64,000 bases of DNA from Mytilus galloprovincialis. Taxonomy: Eukaryota. The notes under the pieces were generated by a model that did not search any database, had not been told where the DNA came from, and saw nothing but the letters and a program-made list of their open reading frames with translations. Shown piece after piece: positions 3,001 through 57,893 of the stretch. Location: positions 74,781,723 to 74,845,722 of the forward strand of contig NC_134841.1 of assembly GCF_965363235.1 (NCBI RefSeq), given 5' to 3'. Both the position numbers and the translations under genes were made by a program. Numbering within the stretch: position 1 is the stretch's first letter; every line of letters begins with the position of its first letter.

Positions 3001-6000
3001 TCTGTATATTAATAATAATAATGTAGTACTTTTAGATAATGAATATATATGATTTGTTGCTTATATAGGCATAGATGATCCATTTACATACATGTAATTA
3101 ATGAGATGAAGATATTTATAATGGGGAAAACACACCTTAATTTAGTAAATACTGGTGTTAAATGAAATGTAAATTTATACATGTTCAATGTGCGTCACAG
3201 ACAATGTGTGTGAAAAAAGAGTCTGATATTGATCAACAACTGGAAGTTTTTCCCTTTTTCCAGATACTGGGTGAGTTTGCTGATCTTTCTCCCAGCATTT
3301 CAAGACTTGATTTATAAGACTGACCAATTCTATAATTAAGCTCTATAAGTCTGGGATTTAAAAAAAAAGAAGGACATTTTGAACACAGGTCATCTTTGTT
3401 GTCAATGGTTGAGTAAATACTCAACGGGATGAAACCAAGTTTTTTGGTGTGGTTATCTCAATTATTAGTTCTCTGTGTAGTGTTTCGATGGCTGTTGTTG
3501 GTCCTTTTTCCTTGTTACGAGTATCTGTTTTTCTCTGACTTGTTGTTTTTGATTGCTACCATGGTATATTCTCCCTGTTTTCTGAAAGTTTTACTGGATT
3601 TAGAATCGTTTATTGTTTTGAATCAATTTGACAAAAGGAATGATTTGACCAGTCTTCTTCCCTGTTTTGAAGTTTTTATTATATATATATCTAAAAAAAA
3701 GTTTGGCCTAAAACAACAAATAGGTTTCTTTGACTACATGCTTTATATGTGCTTTGAATATCTTAACAGTCTGATCTATATACCTAGATATATATAAATA
3801 TAAGTAAACCTTCAGAACCTGACATTTTATATGAAATATATAAGTAATCCAATTTCCATATATAAATCTTAGATTTTTTATACCTTAAACAATTTTTTTT
3901 TTATATATGCATTTTTATATTTGTGTAATTTTGTAAACTGTTTGAAAATTGATTAAATTTTTTTTTTCTTCATATAAATTTCATAACCTTGTCTGAAATT
4001 TGTCTAATATTCTGAGATTCTGTGATTGGCTGAGTTTGTGAGGCCGAATTTGTTATAGGCTGAGTTTATAATAGTCTTGAGAACGTTCTTCTCTGAGTCA
4101 TAAGGGAGTCCAGCGGAAGTAGTAATATCAGAAACTGATAATAATGACGGAAAATACATCTGGAAATCATTTTATTTCAAATCATTCCCTAAATAACAAA
4201 AATAATTGTTTGGAAGGAAAACACACTACAGTTTGTATACTACTTTAAGGGTATAGAATTATATTGATTACTGTAATCTGAAAATCATCAGGCTGCTGTC
4301 CCATTGACATATAGTCCACTTCACCTATGTCTATCAGTTTTCACTTGTCAAAGTGTCAATTTCAATAGCACACTAATTATATATTTTTTTTAAATGTTGT
4401 ATAGACTATTTGCTACCTCTAGTTTTGATATTATGACTTAAAGATGTTCAGGGTTTGATCAATTAGGTATGATATTGTTCTTAATTTCTACACCTATGGT
4501 CTAAAAGTGTTTTGCTTAGGTATGTTAAACAAGAAGACAGATATTAGAATGTTACCGTCTGACACCTGTACTCTATTAGGTTCTATGATATATGTAGTAC
4601 ATTTCTTTAAACTGACATATAAGGTCAGGACTTCTGTTTCTGAGGTGTGAGTTAATGAGTTTTGGGTCAATTTGTATCTATATATGGTGTAAAAATTTAT
4701 ATATAACAGTTTACTAAAGGAGGCTTACAACATGTACAGCACATGTCTCAATAGATCAACAATAAAACCTGTTACAAGAGCCTGCAAATCTTGTGCCAAT
4801 CTAACAATTTTTCAAATTGTTTGAGGGCCAACAGACAACACAAACAAAAAATTTGACGATTTTCACTTAGTCAATGCATAATTCATTATTCCTTCATTCC
4901 TCTATATAACTTTAATCCATCTCCTTTGAATATTGAATTTAGTGGAAAATTGGGACAAACTAAAGTGTTATATTCATAGCTGATTGTTTAATGGTGTCAT
5001 TTCCTGACAGAATTTCCAGCAATTACATGTGCAAAATTGATGCTAATGAAATGTTTTGGTTAGAACAGGCTTCTGAAAACCAATCCTTCATATAGTGGGT
5101 AGAAAAGTTATCTTCAGGAAATTCTGACTTAATCATGTGCTTGAAAACTTGTGGTAAAAGGGAGTAAAGATTAAGACCCTGACTTCCTGTTCAATTACAC
5201 TTTTGTTTTGGTCAGACACTGGATTCTTTTGTATATACATGTAGCTAGCATATTCCTCTTTTTGACCTTGAAGATAAACAAATATGTTTCAGGCTGTACA
5301 TTATTAGTTTTATTTGCCAATGTCAACAAATATCCACACACATTTTATGAAAAGAAATCTATGTATTTTGAAATTGATTTCTCTTTTGAAACTAAACAAT
5401 AACAATGATTAGACATATGCCATTCACTCAGTGTGAAATATATATATTTATTCAAACACTTGACCTCGATCTAATAATAAAGATTATTCGAAACCAATAC
5501 CAGTTCCAATCAATAATATCAAAATTGTATCTGACACAACATGTGATGTTAAAAGTTAGAATATACCTATTTGAAAGTAAAATTTCATTTCCATTATTTC
5601 ATAACATATTGGATAATGAAGTCATGGCCTAGTTTTTTGACTTGTTGATGATGTGTTGTGAAATATGAAGATTTAAATGTTTGTCATGACGTCAACAGTC
5701 CCAGTTACTAGACAAACAATTCTGCGTACATGTAATTGGTGGGCTAAGTACATTTCTAAGTATTAAATCAAGTTTATGTTTATTTGTCCTTGCTCAAACT
5801 TCCTCATGCTTGTTCTTTTATTCAAAACTTTAAAATCTAAATTAAATTATGACATAAAAATTACGTTTAAAAGGAAATGTTCATCTGTTGTCAGGATGTT
5901 ATGTGATCATCGATTTTTACTCCTACACTGGATTAGTAACAGTGAAAACGTTCATTACTATAACAAAGATTGCACCACATTTTTGTGGCATCTGTTTAGG

Positions 6001-9000
6001 TGTGGGGTTAATGTTTGCGTCTCTCACAAATTTAAATATTCCTTTGTCTAGTATGTTCAAAGCAAAGTGTTTCATAAATTTATGATTCAATCCAACCTTA
6101 ATGTTGCTTGGTTTAAACCAGTCCTTGGAAACACACTTGAGTTCAGTAATTTTGAGTAACCAGAATCAGGCATGACTTAATTGAAATGCAACAGGCTGAG
6201 AATTACAGAAAAACAAGGAAATTGTGGATTACTCGGAAAAAGACATAAAAATATACCTGTATAGGAAATCAGATCATTTTGGTTCATTGATTTTGTTTTT
6301 ATTTATTTTAAAATATGTAGTATGTTTAAATCAGAGGAAGACATGCTTTTGATGGTCATGTTTTGAACAGGAAGAGACTGACTGAATAAACAGGATAAAC
6401 CTGTATAAACAATTCTCCCTTCCCTTTGTCTGCATAGTAAAGCTCAAGAGTACATGAATTGTTTATTAGTTTCAAGATAATGTGTTGTAGCTTTTCCTAG
6501 AATTTTAATTTTCTACAAAAATGGTGGTATTGATTATGGTTAAAACTTATGAATCTAATTATATAATATATTGACATAGTGCAACATGTTGCCAAATGGA
6601 ATTTGATATTTTTAAATTTGATATGCTACTTTAAATGATGTGAGCTGGTGTATGTACATATAGGGAGTGAATATTATAAAAATCATAAAACAGTAAAATT
6701 CTTCCTTTTCCTGTTTTATAATCCTGGTACCTTTGATAACTACTGTCACAACTAGATATGATTTTAGATTGAACCTTGCTTTTAAAAGCTTACCAGGGAG
6801 AAATCAAATTTATTTCAAATCTGATAGAATTATCATTAAAACAAAGCATTTTCATCCAGCAACACATTACATAATCATGAGATTCTTCTTAGTTTTACCT
6901 TCCCAGGGTCAAATGTGTGGTGTGGTGAGACATTCCATTAAATATGCTTACTCAGCAGGTTTAATGACGATGTTAATTTTGTTTTGCATGCTACAATAGT
7001 TAAGGTACATATAGGTAAGATATAGGTTTAACTCCCGGTCAGAAGAAACACCTGCTTTCAAAATTTGTAAATAACCCCAGTAAACAATATCTGCACTTTG
7101 ACTTGATCTTATCCGCTTTCACCTTCAAGTCCTCGTATTATAAACAAAAATGTGTGGAGGTATTTCATGATGATACCTTGTCACCTGACTTTGACTACGG
7201 TACTTTTTCATGCTTTAGTGGGCTGGATAATTATTTCAAGATGAACCCCAGTGGTTGGGTTGTGTTCAAGATAAGGTTCTGTCACAGGTAGTTTTGAGAT
7301 CTTTTCGTTGGTGAGTTAGTGAAACACCTCATTTTCATGGTTTAGTAAATCAGATTTTACTTATCCATACTGTTACTTTCTATTACTGAACTTGTTAGAT
7401 TCAAGACCTCATTTACCTGAGCAAGACATTTATGTGTGTCCTCTTTTGTTATTAATTTGTTTTTACTGTTGATAATAATTTTGTGGTTTACTTGTACACA
7501 TTATGATCCATCTTTAATGACATTTTTTTTGCTGCGTATATGATAATTGTTAAATTACTAAACTAGATTTGTTTGCATTTAAGGTTTCAGGAAATCTATT
7601 GTTTATTCATAAGGCCTAATTAGCATGAGTCATTTACATGTATGGTTTATATGAAAATATTGTGAAGAGACAACATTTCATCATGTATCCAAAGTTGAAT
7701 TTTGAAATTCTTCTTTTGATAAGTACATAAATCTAATTTAAACTTAATTATCATAAAATTGTCATCTTCAGTGACAAACAGAGATATAGTAAACCAGAAA
7801 TGATGTCCTTGTTACAATTTAATGCACATATTTTATTTATTAACTGCATATATATCACCAATACGAGTCCAGCATATATAAGACAAATATATGTTAAAGT
7901 AGCAGTACTTATAGCTACAACATATTCAGTTATCTAGTCATTTAAGTCCAGTTGCAGGAATATATCTAAAATTTAAAAGTGTATGTTTTCGTACATTTAA
8001 AGAAAATTTTTAATATCTTTTTAAAAAAAGCTATTTCTACATTGTCTAGATACAGAACCAGTCTTAAGACAATATCACTGCAGTTTGTTTTTTTTAAAAG
8101 AAAGACAACTCTAGCATATATGTTCATTTATAAACTAAGTCACTTTACAAAGTTGCTTCTTAAGTATTGTGTTTATATCTTTATGTTATGTCCCATCTCC
8201 TCTAAACGGAGATAAAGTGTGAATAAAGTGTGACTAATGACCATCTTTTTGTTTGCTATCGAATAAAACAGTTGTCTAGCTTTAATTTCTTTCTGCCTGT
8301 AGAATTGGAGCAGATTTTTGGTTTATAAGTCTTATAATAGTATTTACACTGTTGACGTTGTTACATTACATCTAGTTCTATAGCAAAGCATCACAGTTTA
8401 TGATATTAGTACACAGTAATGTTAATTAGTACTGAATTCAGACCTCTCAGGGCCTTATTTTCACAGCAGATGTGATGGAGGTGTAACTCAATAAATAAGT
8501 CAGAATTAATTGGTTAGGGATTAAAGGATGTCAGGTTGTAAAGTTTAGATCAGAGTATGTAGAGGATTCTTTTATTTATTTTGCTTCCTTAATTGATACA
8601 TGATTGTACTTTCAGAATCATAAGAATGATTTATTAACCTTTATGTACTGAACTTAGACAATGCATACACTTTATTTCATTACTTTTATAGGGACATTTA
8701 AAAATCAAAGCATGTTCCAGTTAAGCAAAGATACATGTAGACAGTCATGTTTACCTGGAAGGAAAATTGATGAAACGATCAGTTGATTGTAACCAAAAGA
8801 TTGTAGACTGTCTGATTTGACATTTCTTTGGAAAAAAATTCTTAAGATATGGACTTGGAATTAATTTTGATTTTATTTTTTCCTGTTGCACAGTCAAAAC
8901 CCAGTATACTGAACAGAAAATTCATTGAAATCCTATACACCACTTGAAATATTCAAATGAAAATTCTTGTGTACAGTACAGAAATGTTAGTTATTAAAAT

Positions 9001-22639: not shown

Positions 22640-23660
22640 GATAACAAAGGGACATTCAAACTCATAAGTTGAAAGTTGACATCGCAAATTTTAAACAAAG
22701 AAAAAAAGTCAAAAAGACATCCAACAGTACACAAATTACAAAACATAAAAAACTAGACTGATCAACATGAACCCCACTAAAACTGGGGTGATATCATGTG
22801 CTCCGGAAGAGTAAGCACATCCTGATCCACATGTTGCACCCATCGTGTTGCTCAGGGTAGTACACACACAATTATTAGACTAATTAGGTTGTTCACATTT
22901 GGGGAAAAGTGGACGAGACATGTAGTTACGACAATTTGAATGTTACATTTGATATCTGTGAAACAGATATTCCATAAGGCCAATCAACTCGTGATGGCGT
23001 CTGTAAAATTAACGAAAACTTAAAACTCTTGGTTTAATAGCTTTCTTGTCAACAGCAACTCAAAGAAATCGTAATAGTAATTAAAGTCCTGGAATTCTGT
23101 ATCAGCTGGGAGATATATACTCCGTATACAGGCGCTGCCGGAATAATGATACATACAAATGGAAAGTTCACGATTGGGAAGCTGGAATCTCTTTTGTCGT
23201 AAAGTGTTAAATTTTGTATTTACGCAAGACGCGAGTTTTGTCTACAAAAGACTCATCAAACACGCTCGAATCCAAAAAAGTTTAAAAGGCCAAATAAAGT
23301 ACGAAGTTGAAGAGCATTGAGGACCAGAACTCCTAAATTTTTGCCAAATACAGCTAATGTAATCAATTCCAAGGCTCCATGTGGAAGGCAGTACCTCTAA
23401 CGTATATACATTGCGACTTGGATGGAGAGTTGTCTTATTAGTTCTCCTACCATATCTCATTTTCTGTTGTTTTAAAACGACCGTCAATTTCAATTTCTAG
23501 ATGTAAGTTAAGATATGAAGCAGAACTGTATCTGTTGTATCCCTGTCTGATGAATAAATGCGTATAACATAGTCACCAAATTTTTGATTATTAAAGGAGA
23601 GAACATCATTTAAAGAAAGGAAATTAAATTAAACGATACTGCAAACTTCAATGTTTTCTT
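22640..23660 (-). mobile_element. Interspersed repeat family copy contiguous with Penelope-like RT tail (orientation -), carries a decayed hammerhead motif
   Basis: Homologous in reverse orientation to 48763-49320 (e.g. GCAGCGCCTGTATACGGAGTATATATCTCCCAGCTGATAC vs its reverse complement at ~48920; CGTGATGGCGTC block shared). The 23560-23660 segment matches the RT motif-C tail of the 48690-48760 PLE fragment. Smaller fragments at 24760-24970, 32084-32340 and 52150-52200. Confidence 0.45.
23221..23265 (-). ncRNA. Hammerhead ribozyme motif, degenerate (TTGATGA..AAAAC)
   Basis: Reverse complement reads CGTGTTTGATGAGTCTTTTGTAGACAAAACTCGCGTCTTGCGTA. HHR architecture with point changes in the catalytic core. 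Confidence 0.35.
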
Positions 23661-23831
23661 GTATGAATTCAGCCTCAGTTGAATAAAGAAACAAGTCGGC
23701 AAGAAGAGAAGCATAGTTGGTTCTCATGGGAATACGAATTGTTTGTTGAAAATAAAATTAAACACGTCAATAACTATGAAACCCGTTTATTTGCTGATAA
23801 TAGCTATCAAAGGTACCAGGATTATAATTTA

Positions 23832-23875
23832 GTACGCCAGACGCGCGTTTTGTCTGCACAAGACTCATCAGTGAG
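23832..23875 (-). ncRNA. Hammerhead ribozyme motif, near-intact (CTGATGA core, GAAAC->AAAAC)
   Basis: Reverse complement reads CACTGATGAGTCTTGTGCAGACAAAACGCGCGTCTGGCGTAC, followed by the conserved TAAATTATAATCCTGGTACCTTTGATA tail. Confidence 0.45.
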
Positions 23876-25747
23876 TTATAAAGTCAAAACAAGTACAAAG
23901 TTGAACAGCATTGACGATCCAAAATTCAAAAAAAAAAAAAACTGTGCCAAATACGGATAAAGTAACTATGCATGGGATATGAAAATCCGCAGTTTATCGA
24001 AAAATTCAAAGTTTTATAAACAGGAAATTTATAAAAATGACAACATAACATTGATGCTGATACTTTGGAAAGATTGTTCTTGGAGCACTAGGAAGAGTCA
24101 GCAAAATAACGTAGTTTGTAAGGTTAATTATGTAGTAAGGTATCCAATACAGTGACAGAAAATCCAGTTCTTCATCTTTGGTTGAATATCCAGAGGAACA
24201 AACGTAGCTATGATTATGAAGAATTTCCTTCTTTGTAAGTTTCGATGGGGTTTAAAAGTTGACTTTCTAAGTGAAATGTCAATACAATTTCCAAGCATTT
24301 AGTACAATGTGTTTTACACACAAAACGATGTAGTTTTTGGCTTTACCTGCATGGACAACACTATATTTGTCCAGTAGATAAAACAAGTGTTTTGCAACAT
24401 TTGGGTCTGTACAAATTGATGTAGTATGGGTATTCATAGAGACATTCAGTTTTCAATTCTTATTTGTGTCACAGCCTTAATCAATTCGGGAAGATTATAT
24501 AGGTCTTCTTTCTCGACTTAATACCATTACCTGGCATAATCCTCGACTTGATATATAATTATTTTGAAGTTGTAGTTCGATTGATGGATTTAGGCGGACG
24601 AAATGTCGGGCCTTTGGATAACACATTTTGCGGAGAAGTGTGATTGACAATGCTTAGGTCATAAGTAATAACGTTGCCAGCCGGACAATATATGAATGGA
24701 GAACTAGCACAGATGCAGAGGTTTAGACTTGAAGTCGTCAATATTGAGATCCAACATCACGTGATTGTAGAGTAAGAACATCCTGCTCCATATGTTTAGT
24801 TTAGTATATTTATATTAAAAAAAGGTCGAAAGATACCAAATGGTTATTCAAATTGATAAATCGAAAATAAACTGACAACGCCAAGGTTAAAAAAAGAAGC
24901 AGATATCAATAGTACACAAAACACAACATAAAAAAAGACTAAGCAACACGAACCCTCAAATGATAGATACAGGCTGATCTTTAAAATGTAAACTGCATCG
25001 AGGAATCATCAGTTCGGAAGTCAGGACTTCGGTACCGATTACCTCAACATTGACTACACAATTAACATTTTGTACGACTGACGTAATCTAAAAAAGACTG
25101 CAACGTGTATATTTCTGTCTGACAGGTATCATTTGACATGGACATCGTTTTCATGGTTTATTGGTCAATGTTAAGCCTTCTTTGTTTAGTTTGGTTCTTA
25201 GATACTATATGCAATTTGATCCAAATAATAATTTTAAGGTGTACATATCTGTTTTGCATGCTTTATTGATCAATATAAAACTTTCATTGTTTGGTCTGTT
25301 ACATTTATACTATATATAAGCAATAGGTCAACAATATTTGGTGTATGGCAAGATTGTGGGGTGTACATGTATTCATGGTTTGGTTTATCTGACATTACCT
25401 CATTTTCTTTGATCATGTAAAGTTTATGTGATACATGAAGTTAAACTTTATATCAACATAAATTCAATGGCAAATAATACATGCGAAACATTCCAGCGTG
25501 TGCACTTATATTTATTAACCCTTTCATCAGCCCAGTAGTCAGCACTTCGGTGTTGACATGAATATCAATTATATGGTAATTTTCATAAATTTCCTGTTAC
25601 AAAACTTGGAATTTTTCGAAAAACTTAGAATTGTCTTATCCCAGGAATTGATTACCTTATCCGTATTCAGCACAACTTTTTGGAATTTCGGATCCTCAAT
25701 GCTCTTCAACTTTGTACTTGTTTGACTTTATATTTTTTTTTTATCTG

Positions 25748-25793
25748 AACGTCACTGATGAGTCTTATGTAGACGAAACGCGCGTCTGGCGTA
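25748..25793 (+). ncRNA. Hammerhead ribozyme (type I-like minimal HHR), intact catalytic core
   Basis: ACGTCA-CTGATGA-GTCT(tatgt)AGAC-GAAAC-GCGCGTCTGGCGTA. Has CUGAUGA and GAAA boxes, 4-bp helix II with 5-nt loop, short helix III (CGC/GCG) and a GUA cleavage triplet. Helix I is ~1 bp, as in dimeric PLE/retrozyme HHRs. Confidence 0.65.
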
Positions 25794-25847
25794 TTAAATT
25801 ATAATCGTGGTACCTTTGATAACTATTTCAACTTTTTTTTATTTTAT

Positions 25848-25884
25848 CGTAACTGACGAGTAATTATAAACGAAACGCGTGTAC
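25848..25884 (+). ncRNA. Hammerhead ribozyme motif, degenerate (CTGACGAG...CGAAAC)
   Basis: AACTGACGAGTAATTATAAACGAAACGCGTGTAC. Core boxes recognisable; helix II lost. Confidence 0.3.
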
Positions 25885-28023
25885 AAAATGATCAAAATAC
25901 TAACTTGACAACCAAGTCACTGCTGATAGAGGTTTCTTCTAAGAAGGTATAACTAACTTAGCAGTCAGCACTTGTGTTTTGTTGAAATGAATTCTCATTG
26001 ATATGGCCATACTTAAAACCTAATTATTACACTACTTTGTTTTGTTCGAAATGCTAAAGAATGTATATCCATGGAATAAATTACCATGGCTATGTTTAAC
26101 AAAAAAAGTCGGAAAGATTGGTCCTCAATGCTCTTCAACTTCTTAATTTATTTGTTTTTTTACTTTTTATATTCGATTGCGTCGATGAGATTTGCGCGTC
26201 TAACGTTCAAAATAAAAAGTGTGGTATTTTTGATGATTTTTTTTTAAAACACAATGTCGATGCCTAACATGATTGAGATTTCCTCTCTGAGGGTATCACC
26301 AGCACGGTAGTCAGAAATTTTGTGTTGACATGAATTATCACAAACTACCTGTTCCAAACACTTTGAATTGCTTGAAATATTTATGATTTTTTATACCCAA
26401 GTCTAGATTATGTGAGCTGTATTTGACAAAACATTTTGGAATTTTGAGTTCTAAATGCTCATTGATTTACTTTCTTTATTTATTGAGCCTTTGATCCTTT
26501 TTTACCGCGTGGCAGATGAGTATTATGGTACCATTGATAAGTTGTTTTACAAACACTTGGTCGATGCCACTGCTGGCATGAATTATCCTTAGGATGGTCT
26601 TATTTCTAAATTAACTGTTTACGAAACTTTGAATTGTTCATAATATTGTTACGAAATGTGGGTCCCCTGAAATTTAACTTGTTCCCCTAAAATTGTGTGA
26701 TGACGTTGTTCAGACTAGAATACTGTTAAGATATTTGATATTTGTATTTATCGGTAATTTGTACATATTTCCTTTGATGTGTACTCGCTGATAATGTCAG
26801 TATCAGTGGACTGGCAGTGATATAAAAATTAGGGGGTCAGTACGCAAATGACATGCGCGAATGCAACGCGCAAAGATCTACTTTTCTCTTTCATTCGCAA
26901 AATTGCGCGTGAATTTTTTCGCAGAAATGAACGAATTTTTAGGCGAATGAAACACTTGTCATTGTTTGAAGCTCCCACAAAGTTAGTTTAGCCTTTTTGA
27001 TTGATTGTTGTGAAAATATGCCATGCACAGATAAACTTTATCTACACTATTATTGATAAATGCAATTCAAGCTTTCCTTGCTATTCACATGCCAAGGACG
27101 TACGTCTAACAGTAACATTTCGTTCATGCTGTTCCAATCCGAGTTTTTATTCATAAAATACCAATACATAGCCTGGTGCTGTTCCAAGTATAGTTTTCTT
27201 TTTCTGCTTCTTGAGAAGTATTTGTTTTACTTGTTCAGTCACTATAAAGTGTAATAGTTCATATTTAGACGCAACACATAAATAGTGACCAAAAAGGTAC
27301 CACTATTGCATGAGAGAATCTAGGGAAGAAAATGAAATACACATTTTCGACATTTTTGTGGGACTGTCATATACAATTTTAAAAGATGTGGTTTCATTGT
27401 CAATATAAAAGACAGATATTCATAGAACGAAGAGCAAAATAAAAGAACATATTTAAATGCAGATCTAGGATAAATTTTAAAAAGGGGGCACCAAACTAGA
27501 GGCTCACCTGATATTTTACTGTGATAAAGTCAGTATCAAAAACAATAATAAAGTCTGATATTTTACTGCGATAAAGTCCGTATAAAAAACAAAAAGTCTT
27601 TATTCTATATGTATTGATGATATTTAATGCATTTAACATTGAGTTTTACCATACAAAACCTTTACTCTAATCTACTCTTTTATATACGAGTTATTACCTC
27701 ACAAGAGTAACCAACCTTACCCGAATGGTAGACATATAACCAGAGTGCTACGAAACCAAAAGGCCATTCTACCGAAGAAGGGTCACCAGTAATAACTTGT
27801 ATTTCTTATATACTCGTACATTCTATCAAAACACATTCTTATAGCAACGCACTAAGACATAAACATTTATAGTTTAACACTAAGGCCCGACTGCTCGGTT
27901 TTCCTTACAATACTTATAATTGTATACCCCAGGAATAAATTACTTTGGCTGCATTTGACCAGACCCTTAGGAATAATAAGTTCTCAAAAGAAAATTTTTT
28001 TATTAAGCCTTTTTACTTTTTTT

Positions 28024-28071
28024 AGCGTCACTGGTGAGTCTTATGTAGACAAAATGTGCATCTGGCGTACA
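28024..28071 (+). ncRNA. Hammerhead ribozyme motif, degenerate (CTGGTGAG...AAAAT)
   Basis: AGCGTCACTGGTGAGTCTTATGTAGACAAAATGTGCATCTGGCGTAC. Confidence 0.3.
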
Positions 28072-29351
28072 AAATTATCAACCTGGTATATTTGATGAGT
28101 TAGTTTTACAACCACTGGGACGATGTCACTGCTGGTGGAGGTTTCGTACCCGAGAGTACCACCAGCCTAGAAGTTATCACAATTGTGGTGACATGAATTA
28201 TCTCTTATATGTTCATACCTATAAATTAACTTATCACAAAATTGAATGATTCGAATAACAAAGGATTTTAACCATAATAATAGATTACCGTAGCTGGATA
28301 TGCAAAATATTTCGAAATATAGGCCCTCAGCGGTCTTCAACTCAGCACTTTATTATTGATATGGTCATATTTATAAAATAACTTATCACAAAGCCTTGAA
28401 TTGTTCGAAATAACTATATAGTTATTGTTTCGCCCCGACGCTCTTAGTTCTGGATCTTTCGACCCATCTCTGTTATGAGATGTCTTTTCGATTTCGTTCT
28501 AACTGGTCTTTCATTTCAGCCTCACCTGTTCTGCGCCCAGATATCTTCGGACATATTTTTCCTTTCCCTTCTTGTATCCATCTTAGGGCAACTCTGGTCT
28601 TATCTTCACCTGGTCTTCGTAGAACATGACCAATCTATCTTCATCTTTATTGCCACAGTAGAGTTCCATGTTGTAGCCCTGTTGTTTCATTGGAACCTTT
28701 GTTTATGATCTTACGTGATCAGAATGTCCTTAAAAGCTTTCTAAGGTAGTCGTTGTAAAAACTGGAAAGATTGTTAATGTCTTTTCAGTCATTCTTTAGT
28801 ATTCTGTTCTATATGACAGCACTGATAGTACACATCTACAGTATAGGGTAATTTTAAGGTTCCGTCTGATGTTGCTATACTTCAAGATGTTGCGTAGCTT
28901 TAAAAAGCAGTTCTTGTTTTTCATATTCTGGCTCGGATGACTTTATCTACTCATCCATCTAATGCTACAATGCTGCCTAGGTAAGAGAATGATGAACTGC
29001 ATTACAGATGTGTCCCATTCATATCTATTATAGGAGGCTTTTAAAAGATGTTAAGGGGTATAAACTCTGATTCGGTGATGTTTAGTCCAACCTGACTTAC
29101 ATTCCCTTGTAACTTGGTGGTTTTGGTTTGAATCTATTTTTAAAGATGTGCCAGTAAAGCCAGATGATCTGCGGTGTCCAGGGTTTGAAGTCATAAAACT
29201 TTGCTCACTGCTTGGAGCACAAAAATCATGCTCGAAACATGAAATCCAGCATTTTGATTGGTTGATTTTGGAGTATGAGTACAAAAAAATGACCCGAAAG
29301 TTTTATGACTTCAAGGCCAGATCTTGGAAGATCTTCCATAGTTCGAGCTAA

Positions 29352-29377
29352 ACTAATGAGTCTTTTGTAGACGAAAC
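29352..29377 (+). ncRNA. 5' half of a hammerhead motif (CTAATGAGTCTTTTGTAGACGAAAC) interrupted by transposon insertion
   Basis: Joins with 33154-33175 (CGAAACGCTTGTCTGTCGTA) to restore CTAATGA-GTCT..AGAC-GAAAC-GCTTGTCTGTCGTA once the element and one TSD copy are removed. Confidence 0.5.
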
Positions 29378-29413
29378 TATGGAACGCCGTAACTGCCTTA
29401 TGGTACTTCATTC

Positions 29414-29742
29414 TTTATCATGATGAGGTTTTTCTTTATTATGATGAGGTTTTTCTCTATCATGATGAGGTTTTTCTCTATTATGATGAGCTTTTTCTTT
29501 ATTATGATGAGTTTTTTCTCTATTATGATGAGGTTTTTCTTTATTATGATGAGGTTTTTCTCTATTATGATGAGGTTTTTCTTTATTATGATGAGGTTTT
29601 TCTCTATTATGATGAGGTTTTTCTTTATCATGATGAGGTTTTTCTCTATCATGATGAGCTTTTTCTCTATCATGATGAGCTTTTTCTCTATTATGATGAG
29701 CTTTTTCTTTATTATGAGGTTTCTCTCTATTATGATGAGCTG
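29414..29742. repeat. Left subterminal array, ~16 x 21-bp unit (TATCATGATGAGGTTTTTCTC)
   Basis: Tandem imperfect 21-mers, alternating TCATGATGAGG / TTATGATGAGG variants. Produces the spurious ORFs 29398-29673(-) and 29420-29746(+). Confidence 0.8.
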
Positions 29743-29812
29743 TTAGAAGGGAATCATGGGAAATTAAGAGAATTATGGGAAATTAAGAGAATTAAGATAA
29801 ACAAAAAGAAAA

Positions 29813-30187
29813 ATGGCAGAATCAGAAACGTTGAAAGTTTTTCGGAAAGTTGGCTTGCTCCATGTGCGGGAAATGTTTGATAAAGAAAAAATAACACCAA
29901 ATATTGTCAGCATGCTTTCAAAACATGAACTGGAATATCTAGGAGTTTCCATTCCAGCCCATATGATGACACTGCGAATGGAATGCATTAAGTATGGAAA
30001 CATGAAACCTGAGAAAACTGATAGTTTGGATGGCCATCCAAAATACCATGTCGACAAAAATGTACTGGAATCGTTGTTGGATTGTGACTTTAAGATATCG
30101 GACAGTGGAAATCGCTTTCAACTCTCAAAGAGAACAATCTATCGACGGATGGCTCATTTTGGACTACAGAAAAGAGATTTTTTCTGA
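29813..30187 (+). CDS. Transposase N-terminal part: SAM-like domain + helix-turn-helix; frame broken in T6 run at 30178-30183
   Basis: MAESETLKVFRKVGLLHVREMFDKEKITPNIVSMLSKHELEYLGVSIPAHMMTLRMECIKYG resembles a sterile-alpha-motif fold. LSKRTIYRRMAHFGLQKRD is HTH-like. Deleting one T in GATTTTTTCTGAC joins this frame to the 30030-31130 frame (QKRDF|SDIDDDNLD). Confidence 0.5.
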   Translation: MAESETLKVFRKVGLLHVREMFDKEKITPNIVSMLSKHELEYLGVSIPAHMMTLRMECIKYGNMKPEKTDSLDGHPKYHVDKNVLESLLDCDFKISDSGNRFQLSKRTIYRRMAHFGLQKRDFF

Positions 30188-31130
30188 CATTGATGATGAC
30201 AACCTTGACAATATACTTTCCGGCATTGTGGTAGACTTTTCACGTTGTGGCGAACGCATGTTGCGTGAAATACTGAAAGGACAAGGAATTAAAATACAAA
30301 GATGGAGGTTAAGAGATGCCATTCATAGAATAGACTATGCTGGTACTCAAGAAAGAAAGACCGGTCGACTACACAGGCGTGTATACAACGTAATGGCACC
30401 GAACCACTTGTGGCACATAGACAGTAACCATAAATTAGTAAGATGGAGATTCATTATACTGGGTGGAGTTGATGGGTTCAGTAGGCTGATTATGTTCCTG
30501 CAGTGTCGTGACAACAACACTTCCGCCACCGTATTGAATAGCTTCCTCTGTGGAGTAGCGAATTTTGGTATATCCTTAAGGGTTCGGTCAGATAAGGGAC
30601 TAGAAAATGTATCTGTGGCGGATTTCATGTTGTCAAAACATGGTGACGGCAGTATGATTACAGGCCCAAGCACGCACAATCAGAGAATAGAGAGATTATG
30701 GAGGGACGTTTACGAGGGTGTTTTGAGCTATTTCTACAACTTATTCTATCATTTGGAAGATCAGGGAATTCTAGATCCACTAAGCGAACAGCATTTAGTA
30801 GGCCTGCACTACATTTACATGGATGAAATTAACAGAAGACTTGATATTTGGACTCAAGCTTGGGCAAGCCATAGAATGAGAACAACAAAATCATCTCCTA
30901 TCAACATTTGGATCGCCGGTCAAATACAGAATCAAGTTGGTACACAACTCAGTGAACGAGATTTAGTTGATTATGGATTAGAGGGAAACGTCGATGCGGC
31001 TAATCTTACGGACGACGGAAGGCCAATTAATGACCAACTTATTAGAGCAGATTTCAATAGGACAGGTACCAACTTTGGCATTGATGACTTTGTGAATTGT
31101 GTTGAATCCTTTCTGCACAAGCCTGATTGA
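30030..31130 (+). CDS. Transposase catalytic part: second HTH + DD(33)E integrase-like (rve-type) core
   Basis: WHIDSNHKL (D) ... 56 aa ... RVRSDKGLENV (D) ... 33 aa ... HNQRIERLWRDV (E). Spacing and surrounding residues match the retroviral-integrase/IS481-type DDE fold (established knowledge about the fold; family assignment not made). Confidence 0.6.
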   Translation: MAIQNTMSTKMYWNRCWIVTLRYRTVEIAFNSQREQSIDGWLILDYRKEIFSDIDDDNLDNILSGIVVDFSRCGERMLREILKGQGIKIQRWRLRDAIHRIDYAGTQERKTGRLHRRVYNVMAPNHLWHIDSNHKLVRWRFIILGGVDGFSRLIMFLQCRDNNTSATVLNSFLCGVANFGISLRVRSDKGLENVSVADFMLSKHGDGSMITGPSTHNQRIERLWRDVYEGVLSYFYNLFYHLEDQGILDPLSEQHLVGLHYIYMDEINRRLDIWTQAWASHRMRTTKSSPINIWIAGQIQNQVGTQLSERDLVDYGLEGNVDAANLTDDGRPINDQLIRADFNRTGTNFGIDDFVNCVESFLHKPD

Positions 31131-31799
31131 ACTTTTCAGTGACTTTTTGCATACAATAACAAGTAATATTTTACATGATCATTGTTTATTTCTTCGCCTG
31201 TTTTAGTCTTGTTTTTGTTTTCCGTCATTAAACTCATCTGGTACACCTATCTATAAAAGATGATGTTGTATGATTGCCAATATTAATGATACAACTCTTT
31301 ACATGAGACCAGATGACACAGACATTAACAACTATGCATTGTAGGTCACCTCACGGTATTCAACAATAAGCAAATCACATACCACATAGACCGCAATAAA
31401 AGGCCCTGAAATGACAATGTAAAACCATTCAAACGAGAAAACTAATTTATGTACAAAAATTAAAGAAAAACAAATATGTAACACATAAACAAATTACAAC
31501 CACTGAATTACTGGCTTCTGATTTTGGACAGGCACATAAATACAGAATGTCATGGTGTTAAACATGTTATCTGGAGCCCCAACTCTCCCTCTAACCTGGA
31601 ACAGTGGTGTAGCAGTACAACTTAGGAACGGACTATAAAAAATCAGTTGAAATGGCTAAACTCATCAGATGGATAAACATACAAATACTACTAATACAAG
31701 TGGACATGGCCGCGCGAGTACTTGTACATCCTTACAAAAGAAAACTAATAAAAAAAGATCATACATCTACGACTAAATTTTCAATTAGTACACATCAAC

Positions 31800-32560
31800 C
31801 AACTAGATACAATGAATATCCATAAAATGACCTTGAACCCTATTTATTTTCAAGGTCATGCGTCAAAGGTCAAGATCATTAATGGACTTCAAATTTTCAG
31901 CAGACACCCTTATGAACACAGTCACTCGAGAATCAAAATCTCTCAATGAATGTCAAGCAAGCGTAGAACAATGGATGTGCATAGCAAGACCTTGAACCCT
32001 AATGATTTCAAGGTCATTGGTCAATGTCCTTTGAGAATTTTTCATCCAATATCATCCTTGCGAACACTGTAGAATTACTATTGCTAAATGGATATCAACC
32101 ATTTTGGTACAATGAAAATCCATAATAGAGGAACTAAAGATACCAGAGGGACGGTCAAACTCATAAATCGAAAATAAACTGACAACACCTGGCTAAAAAG
32201 GAAAAAGACAAAACATAGAAAACTTAAGAATAAGCAACACGAACCCCACCAAAAACTAGGGGTGATCTCAGGTGCTCCGATAGGGTAAGCAGATCCTGCT
32301 CCACATGTGGCACCAGACATGTTGCTTATGTTAGAAAAAATCCGGTAAATAGTCATAACAAGACCTTGAACCCTATTGATTTACAAGGCCATGCGTCAAA
32401 GGTTTAGGTCTTTATGGGACTGAAATTTTCAGCAGAAAAGCTTATGAACACTACAATCAAAATATGTCAATTGATTTCAATTAAATGGAGTACAATGGAT
32501 TTCCATATCAAGACCTTGAACCCTAATTGAATTGATTTTCAGGGTCATTTAAGTACTTAG
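31800..32560. repeat. Internal tandem repeats (~270-bp period, 3-4 units) with palindromic core AAGACCTTGAACCCTA..TTCAAGGTCAT, inside the DNA transposon
   Basis: Units near 31800, 31980, 32350 and 32500 share ..AAGACCTTGAACCCTAATGATTTCAAGGTCATTGGTCAATG.. / ..GCGTCAAAGGTCAAGATCATTAATGGACTTCAAATTTTCAGCAGA.. Confidence 0.45.
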
Positions 32561-32851
32561 ATTTAATTTTAGCATTTAGGGTATAGTTAAATATCTGCAT
32601 AGCTTGACAACTCAGATCACATCAGAATTATTTGATATAGGATAAAAAGAGTTGGTTGAGGAATACAAAACATATAAATACAATATTTTTATTGAACAAA
32701 TTAAAAGAAAAATGGTAACAAATATTAAGATACTCAATCTTATTTTGTGACTAGATGAACACTAAATATGTCTTTGGTATCTACATAAGAAGTCAAAGGG
32801 GCGTATATAGTATCGGAGAGTGCAACGACATGGGCATTGTTTGGATATTAA

Positions 32852-33118
32852 GCTCATCATAATAAAGAAAAACCTCATCATAAAAGAGAAAAACCTCATC
32901 TTGATAGAGAAAAAGCTCATCATAATAAAGAAAAAGCTCATCATAATAAAGAAAAACCTCATCACAATAGAGAAAAACCTCATCATAATAAAGAAAAACC
33001 TCATCATAATAGAGAAAAACCTCATCATAATAAAGAAAAACCTCATCATAATTAAGAAAAACCTCATCATGATAGAGAAAAACCTCATCATAATAAAGAA
33101 AACCTCATCATGATAAAG
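32852..33118. repeat. Right subterminal array, ~13 x 21-bp unit (reverse complement GAGAAAAACCTCATCATGATA)
   Basis: Mirror image of the left array. Produces the spurious ORFs 32762-33178(-) and 32820-33113(+). Confidence 0.8.
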
Positions 33119-33454
33119 AATGAAGTACCATAAGGCAGTTACGGCGTTCCATACGAAACGCTTGTCTGTCGTACACAATTATAATCCTGTTATATTTGAT
33201 GAGTCATTCTTCAGCATATTTGATTAACGTTTACCGCATGTTGCACTTTGGTCAGCCATTATTCTAGCTGATAATTCCCGATGGGAATTCCATGTTTATT
33301 GTTCGATACCAGATTCGGGTTTCAATATTAATATATATGAAAAGTTTATTTTTTTGTTCTTTTTTGCTGACTTATGGCACAACTTTTTGGAATTTTGGGT
33401 CCTCAATGCTCTCTAACTTTGTATTTGTTTGGCTTTTTAACTATTTTGATCTGA

Positions 33455-33500
33455 GCGTCACTGATGAGTCTTATGTAGACGAAACGCGCGTCTGGCGTAT
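33455..33500 (+). ncRNA. Hammerhead ribozyme (intact core), in the repeat unit that hosts the DNA transposon
   Basis: GAGCGTCA-CTGATGA-GTCTTATGTAGAC-GAAAC-GCGCGTCTGGCGTA, then ATAAAATTATAATCCTGGTACTTTTGATAACTATT. Identical core to 25748-25793. Confidence 0.65.
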
Positions 33501-33722
33501 AAAATTATAATCCTGGTACTTTTGATAACTATTATAACCCTCTGCTTTTATTCATATCCAATATACATAAAACATAAATGAGGGTCATAGTAAGACGCAC
33601 AACGAAGTTGTTTTTAATGTATGTTTTAGTCTTATGGTATATGGTGTAAATAAACAAAAAAGAAAGCATGTTTAAGACATCATATTTTGAGATGGACCAA
33701 ATCAGCCTATCTGGACTATGTG

Positions 33723-33725
<3 letters not shown>

Positions 33726-33786
<61 letters not shown>
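33726..33786. repeat. (AT)n microsatellite, ~30 units
   Basis: Seen directly. Source of the YIYIYI ORF 33532-33915(-). Confidence 0.9.
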
Positions 33787-50859: not shown

Positions 50860-53800
50860 CTGTAAAAATATCTCAAACCAAATAGTTAGTGTTCCTTCCA
50901 CATTTACTGTGTAAACGATGATGTTTAGTATCAATTTTCATTAATTATGACGTGTGCCACTCAGTATACACCACATTTCCCTTAAAACGGTATCGTATAA
51001 TGCCAGAGAAAAGAAATAAATAATCTAGCTGCAGGGGTATCTGCTAACTATAAGAAAAACACGTTATTCAATGCCAAATATGAGGAATTGGCTCTGGTGT
51101 AAATATAAACTTTCAATCCATGTATCTTTGATAAGTTTATTGAGTAATGCGTCCATAGCAATTTTTATAAGGTAGGTCAGTACAAATCGTCTAATCTCTA
51201 ACTGTTTCAGTCGTTTATTGAACACAATTTATTGCTTGGAATGCACATATATACAATACATTCACCAAATAAATTTTGCGTACATTTCAACGTTTAGATT
51301 TAAGTGTTTCGTAAAAAGTATATCCAGACAAGCGCTAGGTACAAACCAAATTTATAAAATGCTTATTTTGAATTATATAAACAGAAAATAGTAAAAAATG
51401 TACATGATGCATCAACATTTCTTTTATATTTTCAAGCTTGCAATGACTGTCTGCTTATTGAAACTTATGCAAGGTCATGTTCTCAACAATGATATAACAG
51501 GTCCGACATCACAATTGTCGTCCCTTGATTTTCGTTGTTCACAAATATAGTCCCTAGTGTTGACAGTGGGTTACTTGACATTAATTTTTATACCCCTTCC
51601 AAATTTATGTCTCCATGTTTAATGCCTAAAATTGCAAGAAGGGGGGTGAAATTACACTGTATAAAAATTTGGGTTCAGAATTTTAAAGGAAAGTAGTGAT
51701 TTGGTCCAGCTGAAAAAGGTTGAAAATTAGCACTTCGGAAGCTGTCAAAAGATTTCAAGACGCCCTAAACATAAAATTGTCCATATTTTGAGTTAGAGCC
51801 GATGAAGTTTTCTATAATTTTGATATAATTTGTCCCAAAAGTAATACAACACACTGTAAAAATTTCATTGAGAAAGCGTAGGTGGGATTTTTTTTTAATT
51901 TTCATTTATCTTCTAAAAGAAATGCACTACGAAATAATTGTGGTCTCGGACCAACAATGATTGATGGTTTCGCCATAGGATTCGATGTAGCATCTATAAC
52001 TTGTGTGATTAAGTATATCTCATTAATTTTATTATAAATTCCTTTGGACCTAATACTAGTAGATATAAAAATAATAGACACAATTACAGTGAGTTGACTA
52101 TGTGTGTTACCGTTCACCTGTATCTATTGTTCAACCAGATTTACATCCCAGTTCCTTTGTTCTAACAGGGGTGATCTGAGCCGGATCACCCCTATCAGAT
52201 CACCCCAGTTTTAGTTTCTGTATTATGCATGCTTTCCTTTGTTCTGTAACATTTTGGCTGAAATGTCAAATCCAGTATAAAACTTATAATTAATTATACG
52301 GAGAAGACTATCTATCAAAATTCACGTAGAAAAAATCCAGTGTATATGCTGGGATTCGAACTCAAGACCTTTAGCATATCAAGCCACGACACATACACTT
52401 CATCAGGACGACTGGATCTATCAGAAATTTAACATACTTAAAGGAAGCAAGATATTTTTATAACTGGGGGGAGTTGGCAGACCTTTACTCAGTGGCGTTT
52501 AAACCCTTTTCGTTAAATAAATTAGTTGTCAGACTGATTGTTCAATTCGATTTTACACTTTTTTAAAGTTGGGCGAGTCGGTTACAAGAGTGGGGCGATT
52601 TTTTCATAAAGTGGCGATAAAGTGTGGGCCAATTGGCCAGTGGGGCGAGTTGATATTGTTTGATATCTACTTATCGTGTTAGGGGGTCATATAAAGAGTA
52701 TGCATCATATAGTAATATATAAAGTATATTATACTGGTTGTGTGTCTTTTTAAAGTAGATTTTATGAATGGTAAATGGTTTTTCGTCTAATCTTAAACAG
52801 CTGGGATGTAAAATAGTTATCCCATTCGGACTTGGTGTGTCAGTGTAAGATCATCCCGATGGCGTCCTTATGGGAAAACTATGAATGAAACATTGACAAT
52901 ACAATAGGGACATTTAAATTGACTATAGTGAGTGATAACATTTTGTGAGGGAATTCGATGTTTGCTATACCACTGTTCATTTTAACTCACTTTATGACAA
53001 AATCACTCATTCAATCAGAATGAAAATTTATGCAGTGTTTTAAGAAATGATTTTACTTTGTATTCACTTATTGTTTGAGAAACTTTTAGTGTTTGAAAAG
53101 GGCGAATTTTCTGTATAAAGTCAATAATTATGTTTATTGCCTTAAATACACAAATGAATGATCCAAAAACTATACCAATACTGAACGACATGTTTATGAA
53201 ACTAAAGCAAAACTTTTGGTTGATAATTTTTTATTAGTTATTGCGAAAATTGAACTAAAAATATTTGTCATTTTCTCCCTACCCAATTCACCCCTATTTC
53301 TTATATGATGTAGACCGGTCATTGTTATTGAATCTTACACAATTTGATTTGATAAAGCTATGTATTTGTTAACCTTACTGCACATGCTTTTCATACATGT
53401 ATATTAAATAAATCCGAACGTGCATGAATGTGTACAGTAACTGAAATGACCTTAAACTGGGCACTGGACGATTCCACATTCTGTTGTATCAATTAAACTA
53501 AAGGTATGATAGATAAGAAAGGCCACTTCTTATATTTTAACAAAATTTTACGAATACACAATTGAAAAATTATTTTTTAAAAGCCTATTGCGAAGAACAA
53601 ACGATATCTTACAAATAAGACGTTTTGCTTATTACAAAAAACCATTTATAAAAGATAAATGCCAAAATACATTTTACGCACAGCTACACCAGGTAAAAAC
53701 TATAGTGTTTATTTTAACCAAAAAAGAGCATTTTTCAATTTAATTGAAATATGTTAATTACAATTAATCCCATATAAATAAAGTCAATATAAGTCCGATC

Positions 53801-54883: not shown

Positions 54884-55151
<268 letters not shown>

Positions 55152-56938: not shown

Positions 56939-57845
56939 CTGTATATTGTTTAAATCAATAACAACTTATTTTTGATGACGAATAAGCAAAAAGAGATATT
57001 GGGTCAATAGAAAAGAGACAGCAACCCTTAGACAACAAAAGACATCGTAGCTGGTGATTTGATAAGGGTCGTTTGTTTTTGGAGTGATCTTTATAAAAGG
57101 GATGTTTGTAGTCTAGAGTATTCTTGGCATATGCACAAATTGTGGTGTGTTAAAGCAAATATACAGCTTAGTGGGGTTCCTGTTTTTCTGACATTGGTTT
57201 TCTTTGTTGAGTTTTTTTGTCTGTTTGATGTTTTTTTTGTTCGTTTTCGACAAATGAGTTTGAATATCCCTTTGAAATATTGCACTTGTCTTGAAATTGC
57301 AATGATAACTAAACCCTTTAGATACTCAAATAACTTTACAGTAACTTATTAATTGATTGATGTGCTTTCCGTAATGCCGTCTTAATAAAATGTAAGTATA
57401 TAGTCTCATAGTCTTTTGTTTTGGCAATCGGTTCGTGAATGTGTTTAAACTAAATATACTTATATACTTATATCTTAAGCTTTAACTTTTCTTTCAAATT
57501 AAGAAAATCTAGCTTAACTGAAATACGTAGGCAAGTATAAAGAGTGGTTAATTTATAAAACTCCATCCAGTAGCAGTAACATCAATTATAAGTATGCATT
57601 GTTTCAAAGTGGATAATCTTGTTTATAGAACTAATTGATGTTTTATTGTGAATATGTAACAAGTGACTTTCCCATTATCACGAAGAGTGGACAATTCAAA
57701 AAATGTTGTGCCAAATACGGCTAAGGTAATCTATTCCAATAAAAGTTTGCATGATGTCATTTCATTTGAGAGTTTCCAGCGGAGCTAAATCCCTGAGAGC
57801 GTTACGGATGTATCAAATATATGTTTTGGCGATTTTTTTTTATCC

Positions 57846-57893
57846 GAGCGTCACTGATGAGTCTTCTGTAGACAAAGCGCATGTCTGGCGCAC
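57846..57893 (+). ncRNA. Hammerhead ribozyme motif, mildly degenerate (CTGATGA intact; GAAAC->AAAGC)
   Basis: GAGCGTCACTGATGAGTCTTCTGTAGACAAAGCGCATGTCTGGCGCA, then CTAAATTATAAGCCTTGTACCTTTTGATAGCTATT. Confidence 0.4.

Follow-up and report, generated by a model that had tools for sequence, protein, structure and literature searches.

Decaying copies of the published mussel retrozyme in a 64-kb stretch of the Mytilus galloprovincialis genome

In this work, we analysed a stretch of 64,000 nucleotides of the Mytilus galloprovincialis genome (NCBI RefSeq assembly GCF_965363235.1, contig NC_134841.1, positions 74,781,723 to 74,845,722), hereafter the window, in which a repeat carrying a hammerhead ribozyme occurs both in tandem and as scattered copies. 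On the evidence of their sequence, these repeats are decaying copies of the already published Mytilus retrozyme without long terminal repeats (a non-LTR retrozyme), and not a new kind of element. The retrozyme is non-coding and AT-rich, with a unit of ~350 bp (about 345-354 bp) and one type I hammerhead in each unit. That the repeats are genomic copies of this retrozyme, taken together with the life cycle and the history of the window that we propose below, is the explanation that we favour, with a probability of roughly 87%.

The mussel family is already known, having been described and experimentally characterised in 2020 by Cervera and de la Peña (Nucleic Acids Research (NAR), PMC7229834), who found ~5000 type I hammerheads in M. 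galloprovincialis, within repeats of ~350-390 bp, and cloned from this species the genomic unit Mg353. This unit self-cleaves with an observed rate constant (kobs) of about 0.1/min, its monomer is released from a dimeric construct and circularised by RtcB, and retrozyme circular RNAs (circRNAs) are abundant in mussel tissues. The supplement of the same study provides the sequence of Mg353 and a consensus of cloned circRNAs, and these two were the reference sequences for our unit alignment.

All units in the window can be aligned to Mg353, with identities of 68-88% and, in places, along the entire unit (positions 1-352; Table 1). Matching the circRNA consensus to the window units gives the same picture, and the unit is collinear with both the 353-nt cloned retrozyme and that consensus. 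The ribozyme at 33455 is one loop-2 base apart from that of Mg353 and identical to those of two copies on metagenome contigs (L001 and L002, introduced below), and the ribozyme at 25749 is 2 nt apart from that of Mg353. The GC content of the copies is 0.33-0.34, open reading frames (ORFs) overlapping or adjoining them have no Pfam match, and a self-comparison of the window, which did not specifically search for a primer-binding site (PBS) or polypurine tract (PPT), found no long direct repeats flanking them. Metazoan non-LTR retrozymes (PMC7229834) are characterised by head-to-tail repeats of about 150-450 bp, arranged as dimers up to multimers, by a GC content under 45-50% and by abundant circRNAs with extensive self-pairing. 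Head-to-tail repeats are present in the window, as ~4.5 in-phase units in 25826-28412, and outside it, as a dimer at 354-bp spacing, and ribozyme scans of viral and prokaryotic genome collections gave no match.

The first-pass annotation, made from the letters of the window, had proposed a bivalve-type retrozyme with scattered decayed copies, and the tie to the Mg353 family bears this out. The finding thus serves mainly as a positive control, in that a known family of self-cleaving ribozymes was correctly spotted from raw sequence.

The 25-nt hammerhead core CTGATGAGTCTTATGTAGACGAAAC occurs eight times in the window at up to three mismatches, against 0 expected from 100 dinucleotide-preserving shuffles. 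Alignment of the candidate sites yields 13 hammerhead-like segments (23259(-), 23871(-), 25755, 25853, ~26180, ~26510, 28031, 29353, 33165, 33461, 57854, 61284 and 63288), on both strands, as the first-pass annotation had stated for number and orientation alike. The independent copies nevertheless number 12 and not 13, because a transposon at 29378-33153 split one ribozyme into the left and right halves found at 29353 and 33165.

When the whole window was searched with the Rfam covariance models, a single match exceeded its curated threshold, namely Hammerhead_1 (RF00163) at 25749-25792 on the forward strand, which scored 36.1 bits (gathering score 34; E=2.1e-5) in an alignment covering model positions 1-45. 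A scan of this Infernal type had been named in the first-pass annotation as a check on its reading, and the two cores that it called intact, at 25748 and 33455, are those that we find intact at 25749-25792 and 33455-33498. Both keep CUGAUGA, GAAA and GUC, in accord with the conserved hammerhead core CUGANGA ... GAAA and an NUH cleavage triplet. Helix I comprises 6 bp, pairing (A/G)CGUCA with UGGCGU (ACGUCA in the 25749 copy), and has an open end; the core CUGAUGA leads into helix II, in which GUCU and AGAC form 4 bp around the 5-nt loop UAUGU, followed by GAAA; and helix III has 2 bp, AC with GU, closed by the loop GCGC.

The cleavage triplet is GUC, rather than the GUA of the initial parse, and the cut is predicted after it, between 25786/25787 and between 33492/33493; the construct table of PMC7229834 marks the same cut, after GCGCGTC. 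Nor does a 6-bp helix I agree with the minimal hammerhead with very short helix I that had been supposed. The motif is a canonical type I hammerhead of the retrozyme type and not a minimal Penelope-type one, two classes that PMC7229834 keeps apart, assigning the minimal variants to Penelope-like elements (PLEs) and Terminons.

In the proposed register, 85.8% of cells pair, compared with 19-50% once the partners are shifted against each other. The segment ACGCGCGU of helix III is palindromic, and a cofold of two copies gives two hammerheads with a common 8-bp intermolecular helix III, at a predicted -30.9 kcal/mol versus 2 x -9.7 kcal/mol, a pattern that resembles the dimeric Penelope-type and newt hammerheads. 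The case for the ribozyme rests on the covariance-model score and on near-identity to a ribozyme shown to cleave, from which we predict self-cleavage of the intact window copies.

The copies fall into two subfamilies, which we label A-type and B-type; these labels are our own and are not the HHR A and HHR B of PMC7229834, where two ribozyme variants differ in loops 1 and 2. A-type copies are the younger, with loop 2 UAUGU and the tail ...AATTATAATCGTGGTACCTTTGATAACTATT, and B-type copies are older and Mg353-like. We also considered copies from outside the window. L001 (ENA ORXM01079405) and L002 (JACSEI010003086.1) were found by a ribozyme scan of metagenome contigs, and L004-L009 (ENA assembly ERZ6864376) are six contigs chosen from 17 'proteins' matched by a spurious ORF spanning the ribozyme. 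All of these contigs are filed as metagenome, carry Mytilus-type retrozyme copies with intact hammerheads and are presumably host (mussel) DNA; over the ribozyme, gene callers had predicted short spurious 'proteins' (…SVTDESYVDETRVWR…).

Twelve of the 13 A-type 3′ termini lie within a few nucleotides of ...TTTGATAACTATT(AT), ~41-43 nt past the cleavage site, with unrelated sequence beyond. Five of them are in the window (25829, 33533, 57927, 23806(-) and 6742) and seven on external contigs (L001, L002, L004, L005, L006, L007 and L008). The canonical A-type terminus ...GATAACTATT(AT) has ...GATGAGTTTATT as its equivalent in the Mg353-like subfamily, and the B-type copies and the probable array end at 33205 stop at the corresponding position. 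At their 5′ side the copies extend for 27, ~90, ~110, ~160, ~180, ~195, ~250-275, ~290 or ~312 nt and for up to 1.26 units, the last being the dimer in L006, whose ribozymes are 354 bp apart and in which the unit closes on itself via ...TACACCACTTGGTCGATGCC...CCAGTAGTCAGCAC.... In no copy does either end coincide with the ribozyme cleavage site. The conserved tail that had been reported to stand alone at 6720 is found at 6714-6744 with 3 mismatches (4 tail matches versus 0 expected), but the companion claim that every hammerhead is embedded in a conserved ~340-bp unit stands only in part: unit-length copies do exist, whereas many scattered copies are 5′-truncated pieces.

A constant 3′ end, variable 5′ truncation and occasional products longer than a unit are together the signature of target-primed reverse transcription. 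The pattern of ends seen here would be such a signature of a Penelope-like kind, with an enzyme and a circular or multimeric template that we infer. For the retrozyme family, others have established that tandem units are transcribed, that each hammerhead cuts after GUC, and that the monomer, with a 5′-OH and a 2′,3′-cyclic phosphate, is closed by an RtcB-type tRNA ligase into a circRNA that accumulates highly. We propose that the circular or multimeric RNA would then be copied, through target-primed reverse transcription, by a reverse transcriptase (RT) that an autonomous non-LTR element supplies, the most likely candidate being a PLE. Priming would start at a fixed site ~42 nt downstream of the cleavage and run backwards over distances that vary between 27 nt and more than a full unit, and the products would be 5′-truncated solo monomers and multimers with a 5′-truncated first unit.

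Several published observations touch on this scheme. Cervera and de la Peña proposed that PLEs probably mobilise retrozymes, and, according to Craig et al. (2021, PMC8557442), insertions of PLEs are highly 5′-truncated, form partial tandems and carry a hammerhead near the 3′ end. A preprint of July 2026 (10.64898/2026.07.22.740005) reports that retrozymes and PLEs co-occur and that monomer derivatives are frequent, finds the Xenopus retrozyme consensus homologous to the pseudo-LTRs (pLTRs) of PLEs, and argues that animal retrozymes derive from PLE pseudo-LTRs.

We put at even odds the proposition that the fixed 3′ terminus ~42 nt past the cleavage site, with 5′ truncation of any length, is not spelled out for the mussel family in the retrozyme literature examined and reflects priming at one specific site of a circular or multimeric RNA, not of a ribozyme-cut linear monomer. 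If true, the retrozyme would mimic the 3′ end of a Penelope-like helper, and the end pattern could serve to identify that helper and, through counts of 3′ ends, to date insertions. The shared 3′ end and the 5′ truncation give modest sequence-level support to the mobilisation of animal retrozymes by PLEs. The fixed 3′ terminus, drawn from 13 termini in this window and a handful of contigs, and the CpG-linked loss of ribozymes described below are our sole increments over published work, and both are preliminary.

The same architecture could arise if the repeats were themselves the pseudo-LTRs, or 3′-terminal regions, of an autonomous PLE, with the solo monomers as heavily 5′-truncated PLE insertions. 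The fixed 3′ end, the strong 5′ truncation, the partial tandems and the hammerhead near the 3′ end all match PLE descriptions, and the Xenopus homology to pseudo-LTRs points the same way. However, no RT/GIY-YIG ORF is present in the window, where the only RT is of the Ty3/gypsy type, at 44906-46216, 7 kb away. The other window ORFs of at least 90 aa have no Pfam match (no PLE profile was run on shorter degraded fragments), and the ORFs of at least 100 aa on the external contigs L007 and L008 likewise have no Pfam match and include no PLE. The longest copies, furthermore, share no common upstream sequence and show unit closure at 354 bp (L006), the unit follows both the cloned retrozyme and the circRNA consensus collinearly, and PMC7229834 places this hammerhead type with retrozymes and not with the minimal PLE variants. 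We consider an autonomous PLE improbable as the source of the repeats. What the retrozyme copies have is a Penelope-like insertion architecture: the element appears to work like a PLE and is not shown to be one. Of the label 'Penelope-LTR-like' in the first-pass annotation, the manner of integration is retained, but no PLE ORF in the window goes with it.

Solo copies with a defined 3′ end and variable 5′ truncation are also what would be left by a tRNA-derived element resembling a short interspersed nuclear element (SINE), transcribed by RNA polymerase III (Pol III) and moved as linear RNA by a long interspersed nuclear element (LINE), the tandems being secondary. A LINE-like fragment does lie in the window, and the hairpin part of the full unit has a B-box-like motif, GGGTCGATGCC (consensus GGTTCGANNCC). 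Yet precisely the part with this motif is missing from the solo copies, their 3′ ends have no poly(A) or simple-repeat tail, ARAGORN finds 0 tRNA genes in the window and the units have no Rfam tRNA match. The dimers and multimers are in phase and show unit closure, and circRNAs are documented for the retrozyme family (PMC7229834), all of which makes a SINE-like element very improbable in comparison with a retrozyme.

As an observation in its own right, the B-box-like 11-mer is conserved between the window (28116-28126, GGGACGATGTC), Mg353 and L006 (about 3095-3110). It could be a chance match to the Pol III consensus or a hint at how source arrays are transcribed.

Some of our results weigh against the retrozyme explanation or parts of it. 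One copy, in L009, runs past the canonical 3′ end. Target-site duplications are inconsistent, the single clear case being the 8-bp TATCAGCA that flanks 23806-24058, although target duplications of Penelope-like insertions, too, are often not discernible (PMC8557442). No PLE is found in the window or beside the external copies examined, and the mobilising enzyme is deduced from the literature. About 120 bp of a unit are missing at the LINE-like fragment, and continuity of the array over 28413-33153 is a reconstruction. The second intact ribozyme, at 33455-33498, matches RF00163 over its full length at permissive thresholds, with 33.0 bits (E=2.4e-4), 1 bit under the gathering score. A covariation count over the 12 aligned, closely related copies found no significant pair. 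Single-sequence minimum free energy (MFE) folds of the 52-nt ribozyme segments miss the hammerhead (z 0.5-0.8), which comes to -6.4 kcal/mol against an MFE of -9.7 kcal/mol, and the monomer folds are not more stable than shuffles (z = +0.5 and +0.2; Mg353 -1.25). Single-sequence folding does not discriminate here, because the active Mg353 ribozyme, run as a control, behaves alike.

The lack of a covariation or folding signal in this small set of copies, most of them with dead ribozymes, would also fit ordinary satellite DNA with a functionless hammerhead-like string, spread by unequal crossing-over and not through RNA, as would the tandem layout, the high AT content and the lack of coding capacity. 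But dispersed, 5′-truncated copies on both strands, with a common 3′ end and unrelated flanks, are something that unequal crossing-over cannot yield. The motif scores above the Rfam threshold, self-cleavage is documented for a near-identical ribozyme, and circRNAs of the family are abundant (PMC7229834). Set against the retrozyme, a satellite origin appears scarcely tenable.

As genomic retrozyme copies, the repeats of the window picture what happens after insertion: ribozymes decay, transposons land in arrays, and the youngest solo copies alone stay intact. Two of the 12 ribozymes (25749 and 33455), both in A-type solo copies, are intact, and ten are inactivated as judged by sequence (Table 1). 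The mutated hammerhead core positions are essential by established biochemistry. Relative to the consensus 44-mer, 16 of 51 substitutions are of the CpG-deamination type, and the 12 CpG positions carry ~1.8-fold the substitutions per site of the other positions (odds ratio 2.1, Fisher p=0.026). G12A, at the C11.1-G12 CpG, is found in four of the seven point-mutated copies and in both subfamilies.

Judged by the copies of this one window, ribozyme loss after insertion appears to proceed largely via CpG decay, and the two intact ribozymes are most simply intact because their host copies are young. The graded series of decay described in the first reading is real and CpG-enriched, but it mixes two subfamilies of different age, and its copy at 57846, called mildly degenerate, has the catalytic-core changes G12A and A15.1G and should be inactive. 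Nowhere in the window is a unit flanked by two functional ribozymes, and the neighbours of each intact ribozyme are dead or absent. Double cleavage would release no unit-length RNA at either intact locus, because there is no functional partner ribozyme there. The window loci would thus be members of the family by descent, dead offspring that are not expected to make circles, and not sources of circRNA.

The layout of the array (Table 1) was derived from profile searches, Mg353 coordinates and unit alignment. Its units are 56-71% identical among themselves (60-71% among U2-U4), with indels. Tandem Repeats Finder reports no ~340-bp period in the window, because the units are too diverged and interrupted by indels; only profile and BLAST searches reveal the array. 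The first-pass annotation had set its limits at 25480-28450. Tandem units are indeed present there, but the interval includes the unrelated segment 26639-27908 and begins with a unit of the younger subfamily, and the array itself spans ~25826-28412, where its recognisable sequence ends, with ~4.5 old units in which every ribozyme is dead. The younger unit, 25518-25829, is 81% identical to the A-type copies 23806-24058(-) and 33373-33533, against 63-67% to the adjoining array units. The left flank, 25380-25517, was tried as a further decayed unit and rejected, its local alignment score of 27 against the 25826 segment being at the mean of left-flank shuffles (27.5); against an Mg353 dimer it scored 33.

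Orientation and unit coordinates fit one multimer, and there was probably a single original multimer from ~25826 to ~33205 that was later hit by three unrelated insertions. In our best explanation, the younger monomers 25518-25829 and 33373-33533 landed beside this old array, and others landed elsewhere in the window. Two minor pieces may be mentioned alongside. A short inverted fragment of the retrozyme body, at 57692-57739(-), lies just upstream of 57813-57927(+) and faintly recalls the inverted 5′-truncated copies beside Penelope-like insertions, but is without the 3′ end of the element. The post-cleavage tail, which makes up the initial 46 nt of the circRNA consensus, has a weak match at 51095-51141 (81% over 47 nt) that may be a further tiny retrozyme remnant.

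Table 1. Retrozyme copies, their ribozymes and the sequences that interrupt them, in window coordinates (. in the strand column, no strand assigned; percentages are identities)
Positions	Strand	Feature	Alignment to Mg353 and other evidence	Hammerhead state and defects
6716-6742	+	27-nt remnant, canonical 3′ tail only	extreme 5′ truncation	
23209-23377	-	B-type fragment	Mg353 positions 93-253 vs 23367-23209, 87.7%	dead, 23222-23265; 23265(-): C3U, G12A
23806-24058	-	A-type copy	canonical 3′ end; 8-bp flanking direct repeat TATCAGCA	dead, 23834-23877; 23877(-): G12A and helix I changes
25518-25829	+	near-full-length A-type solo monomer	canonical 3′ terminus ...TTTGATAACTATT; Mg353 positions 1-243 vs 25555-25795, 79.5%	
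25749-25792	+	intact type I hammerhead	RF00163, 36.1 bits; 2 nt from Mg353 ribozyme	intact
25826-25983	+	B-type multimer unit 1, 5′-truncated	Mg353 positions 174-353; local score to Mg353 dimer 80 vs 27-33 for left flank	
25847-25889	+	hammerhead remnant		CUGACGA/GAAA kept; helices I and II unpaired; 25847: core kept, helices lost
25984-26327	+	B-type unit U2	Mg353 positions 1-352 vs 25984-26314, 68%	
~26170-26210	+	U2 hammerhead remnant		3′ strand of helix II and GAAAC deleted; ~26180: deletions
26328-26576	+	B-type unit U3, internal deletions	profile search, Mg353 and unit alignments	
~26503-26530	+	U3 hammerhead remnant		mostly deleted; ~26510: deletions
26577-26638	+	B-type unit U4, 5′ part	Mg353 positions 3-63	
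26639-27908	.	unrelated 1.27-kb insertion in U4	Mg353 alignment breaks off at 63 and picks up at 67	
27909-28189	+	B-type unit U4, 3′ part	Mg353 positions 67-349 vs 27909-28174, 71%	dead, 28025-28068; 28025: A6G, G12A, C15.2U, helix III CpG changes
28190-28412	+	B-type unit U5	Mg353 positions 1-169, then rearranged piece, positions 14-70	
28413-29336	-	frameshifted coding-like fragment	between array and probable last unit	
29337-29377	+	hammerhead 5′ half of probable last unit	cut off by transposon	CUAAUGA (G5A); 29353: G5A and transposon insertion
29378-33153	.	DNA transposon with terminal inverted repeats, not retrozyme	3776 bp in hammerhead core	
33154-33205	+	hammerhead 3′ half and tail of split unit	end ...TTTGATGAGTCATT at position matching canonical 3′ terminus	
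33373-33533	+	5′-truncated A-type solo monomer	canonical 3′ end ...GATAACTATTAT; 89.9% to 25518-25829 unit; Mg353 positions 114-242 vs 33375-33500, 86.8%	
33455-33498	+	intact type I hammerhead	RF00163, 33.0 bits; one loop-2 base from Mg353 ribozyme	intact
57813-57927	+	5′-truncated A-type copy	canonical 3′ end	dead, 57848-57891; 57848: G12A, A15.1G
61131-61366	+	B-type copy	Mg353 positions 61-284 vs 61140-61366, 77.8%	dead, 61278-61321; 61278: G8A and helix II mismatch
63265-63353	+	short, strongly diverged fragment		63282-63324: CUGAUGA/GAAA kept, helices II and III broken; 63282: core kept, helices lost

Of the insertions in the array, the 1.27-kb segment in U4 has no second copy in the window by self-BLAST and no clear terminal inverted repeats (TIRs) or target duplication, and it holds a 41-nt direct repeat (27508-27548 and 27555-27595). 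The coding-like fragment 28413-29336(-) reads FSYLGS..., ...LYCRCVLSVLSY... and IGHVLRR...ALRW... in translation and, from motifs alone, is reminiscent of a LINE reverse transcriptase in its C-terminal region; its composite translation has no homologue and matches no Pfam family.

The transposon that split the hammerhead of the probable last unit has perfect 55-bp TIRs at 29378-29432 and 33099-33153. Its 6-bp target duplication is CGAAAC (29372-29377 and 33154-33159), and its insertion point falls precisely within the GAAAC of the hammerhead core. A 21-bp repeat forms inverted subterminal arrays (29411-29739 and 32853-33120), and the ORF of the transposon at 30030-31130 encodes 366 aa with an rve/integrase core (PF24764 rva_4, E=5.7e-73). 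An exact look-up of this ORF gave no record; its best named matches are in M. trossulus (94%), M. coruscus (85-87%), M. edulis and M. galloprovincialis, and its homologues are widespread in bivalves and cnidarians. The perfect TIRs suggest that the transposon inserted recently. A second copy, 92% identical, is present on a chromosome of Mytilus trossulus (L003 9581-14081), at a locus other than that of the window and with no retrozyme copy there.

Elsewhere in the window, a young LTR retrotransposon of ~6 kb (40831-46862) has LTRs of 552-556 bp that are 98-99% identical, and its ORFs are, in order, gag-like (SCAN), integrase (H2C2 zinc finger, rve and a C-terminal SH3) and RT-RNase H. The integrase thus stands upstream of the RT though the domains are of the Ty3/gypsy type, an order that we take to be reminiscent of Gmr1-like elements. 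There are two perfect microsatellites, (TATC)67 at 54884-55151 and (AT)30 at 33726-33786, the latter of which gives spurious weak matches to miRNA families in Rfam.

Among known systems, the LTR retrozymes of plants are likewise retroelements that are non-autonomous, self-cleave through hammerheads and pass through circRNA intermediates, but they differ in having LTRs, a PBS, a PPT, type III ribozymes, ~700 bp between ribozymes and a GC content >55%. Sm-alpha of Schistosoma, which is tRNA-related, is also a short, non-coding, dispersed retroelement with a type I hammerhead, whereas the window element has no tRNA-like part detectable by ARAGORN. Newt satellite 2 and the axolotl retrozymes share with it tandem units of ~330-350 bp with one type I hammerhead each, a short helix III (2 bp and a tetraloop) and circRNA products (documented for the mussel family in PMC7229834), but belong to another host phylum and have no sequence similarity to it outside the catalytic core.

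The pseudo-LTRs of PLEs (Cervera and de la Peña 2014; Craig et al. 2021, PMC8557442) carry a hammerhead close to the 3′ end as well, and their insertions are 3′-anchored, strongly 5′-truncated and often partial tandems, with target duplications that are hard to discern. The window unit, in contrast, has no attached RT/GIY-YIG ORF, is only ~350 bp long and self-closing, and carries, in place of the minimal PLE variant, a canonical ribozyme of the retrozyme type (PMC7229834).

With the Mg353 retrozyme, the window copies share the host genus Mytilus, collinearity over a unit of ~353 nt at 68-88% identity, a ribozyme architecture that differs by 1-2 nt, unit size, low GC content and tandem layout. 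They differ in being genomic relics, with ten of 12 ribozymes inactivated and no locus with two live ones, and the intact window ribozymes have loop 2 UAUGU and the tail ...AATTATAATCCTGGTACCTTTGATAACTATT, where Mg353 has loop 2 UUUGU and the tail ...AAATTTGGTCCTGATATCTATGATGAG.

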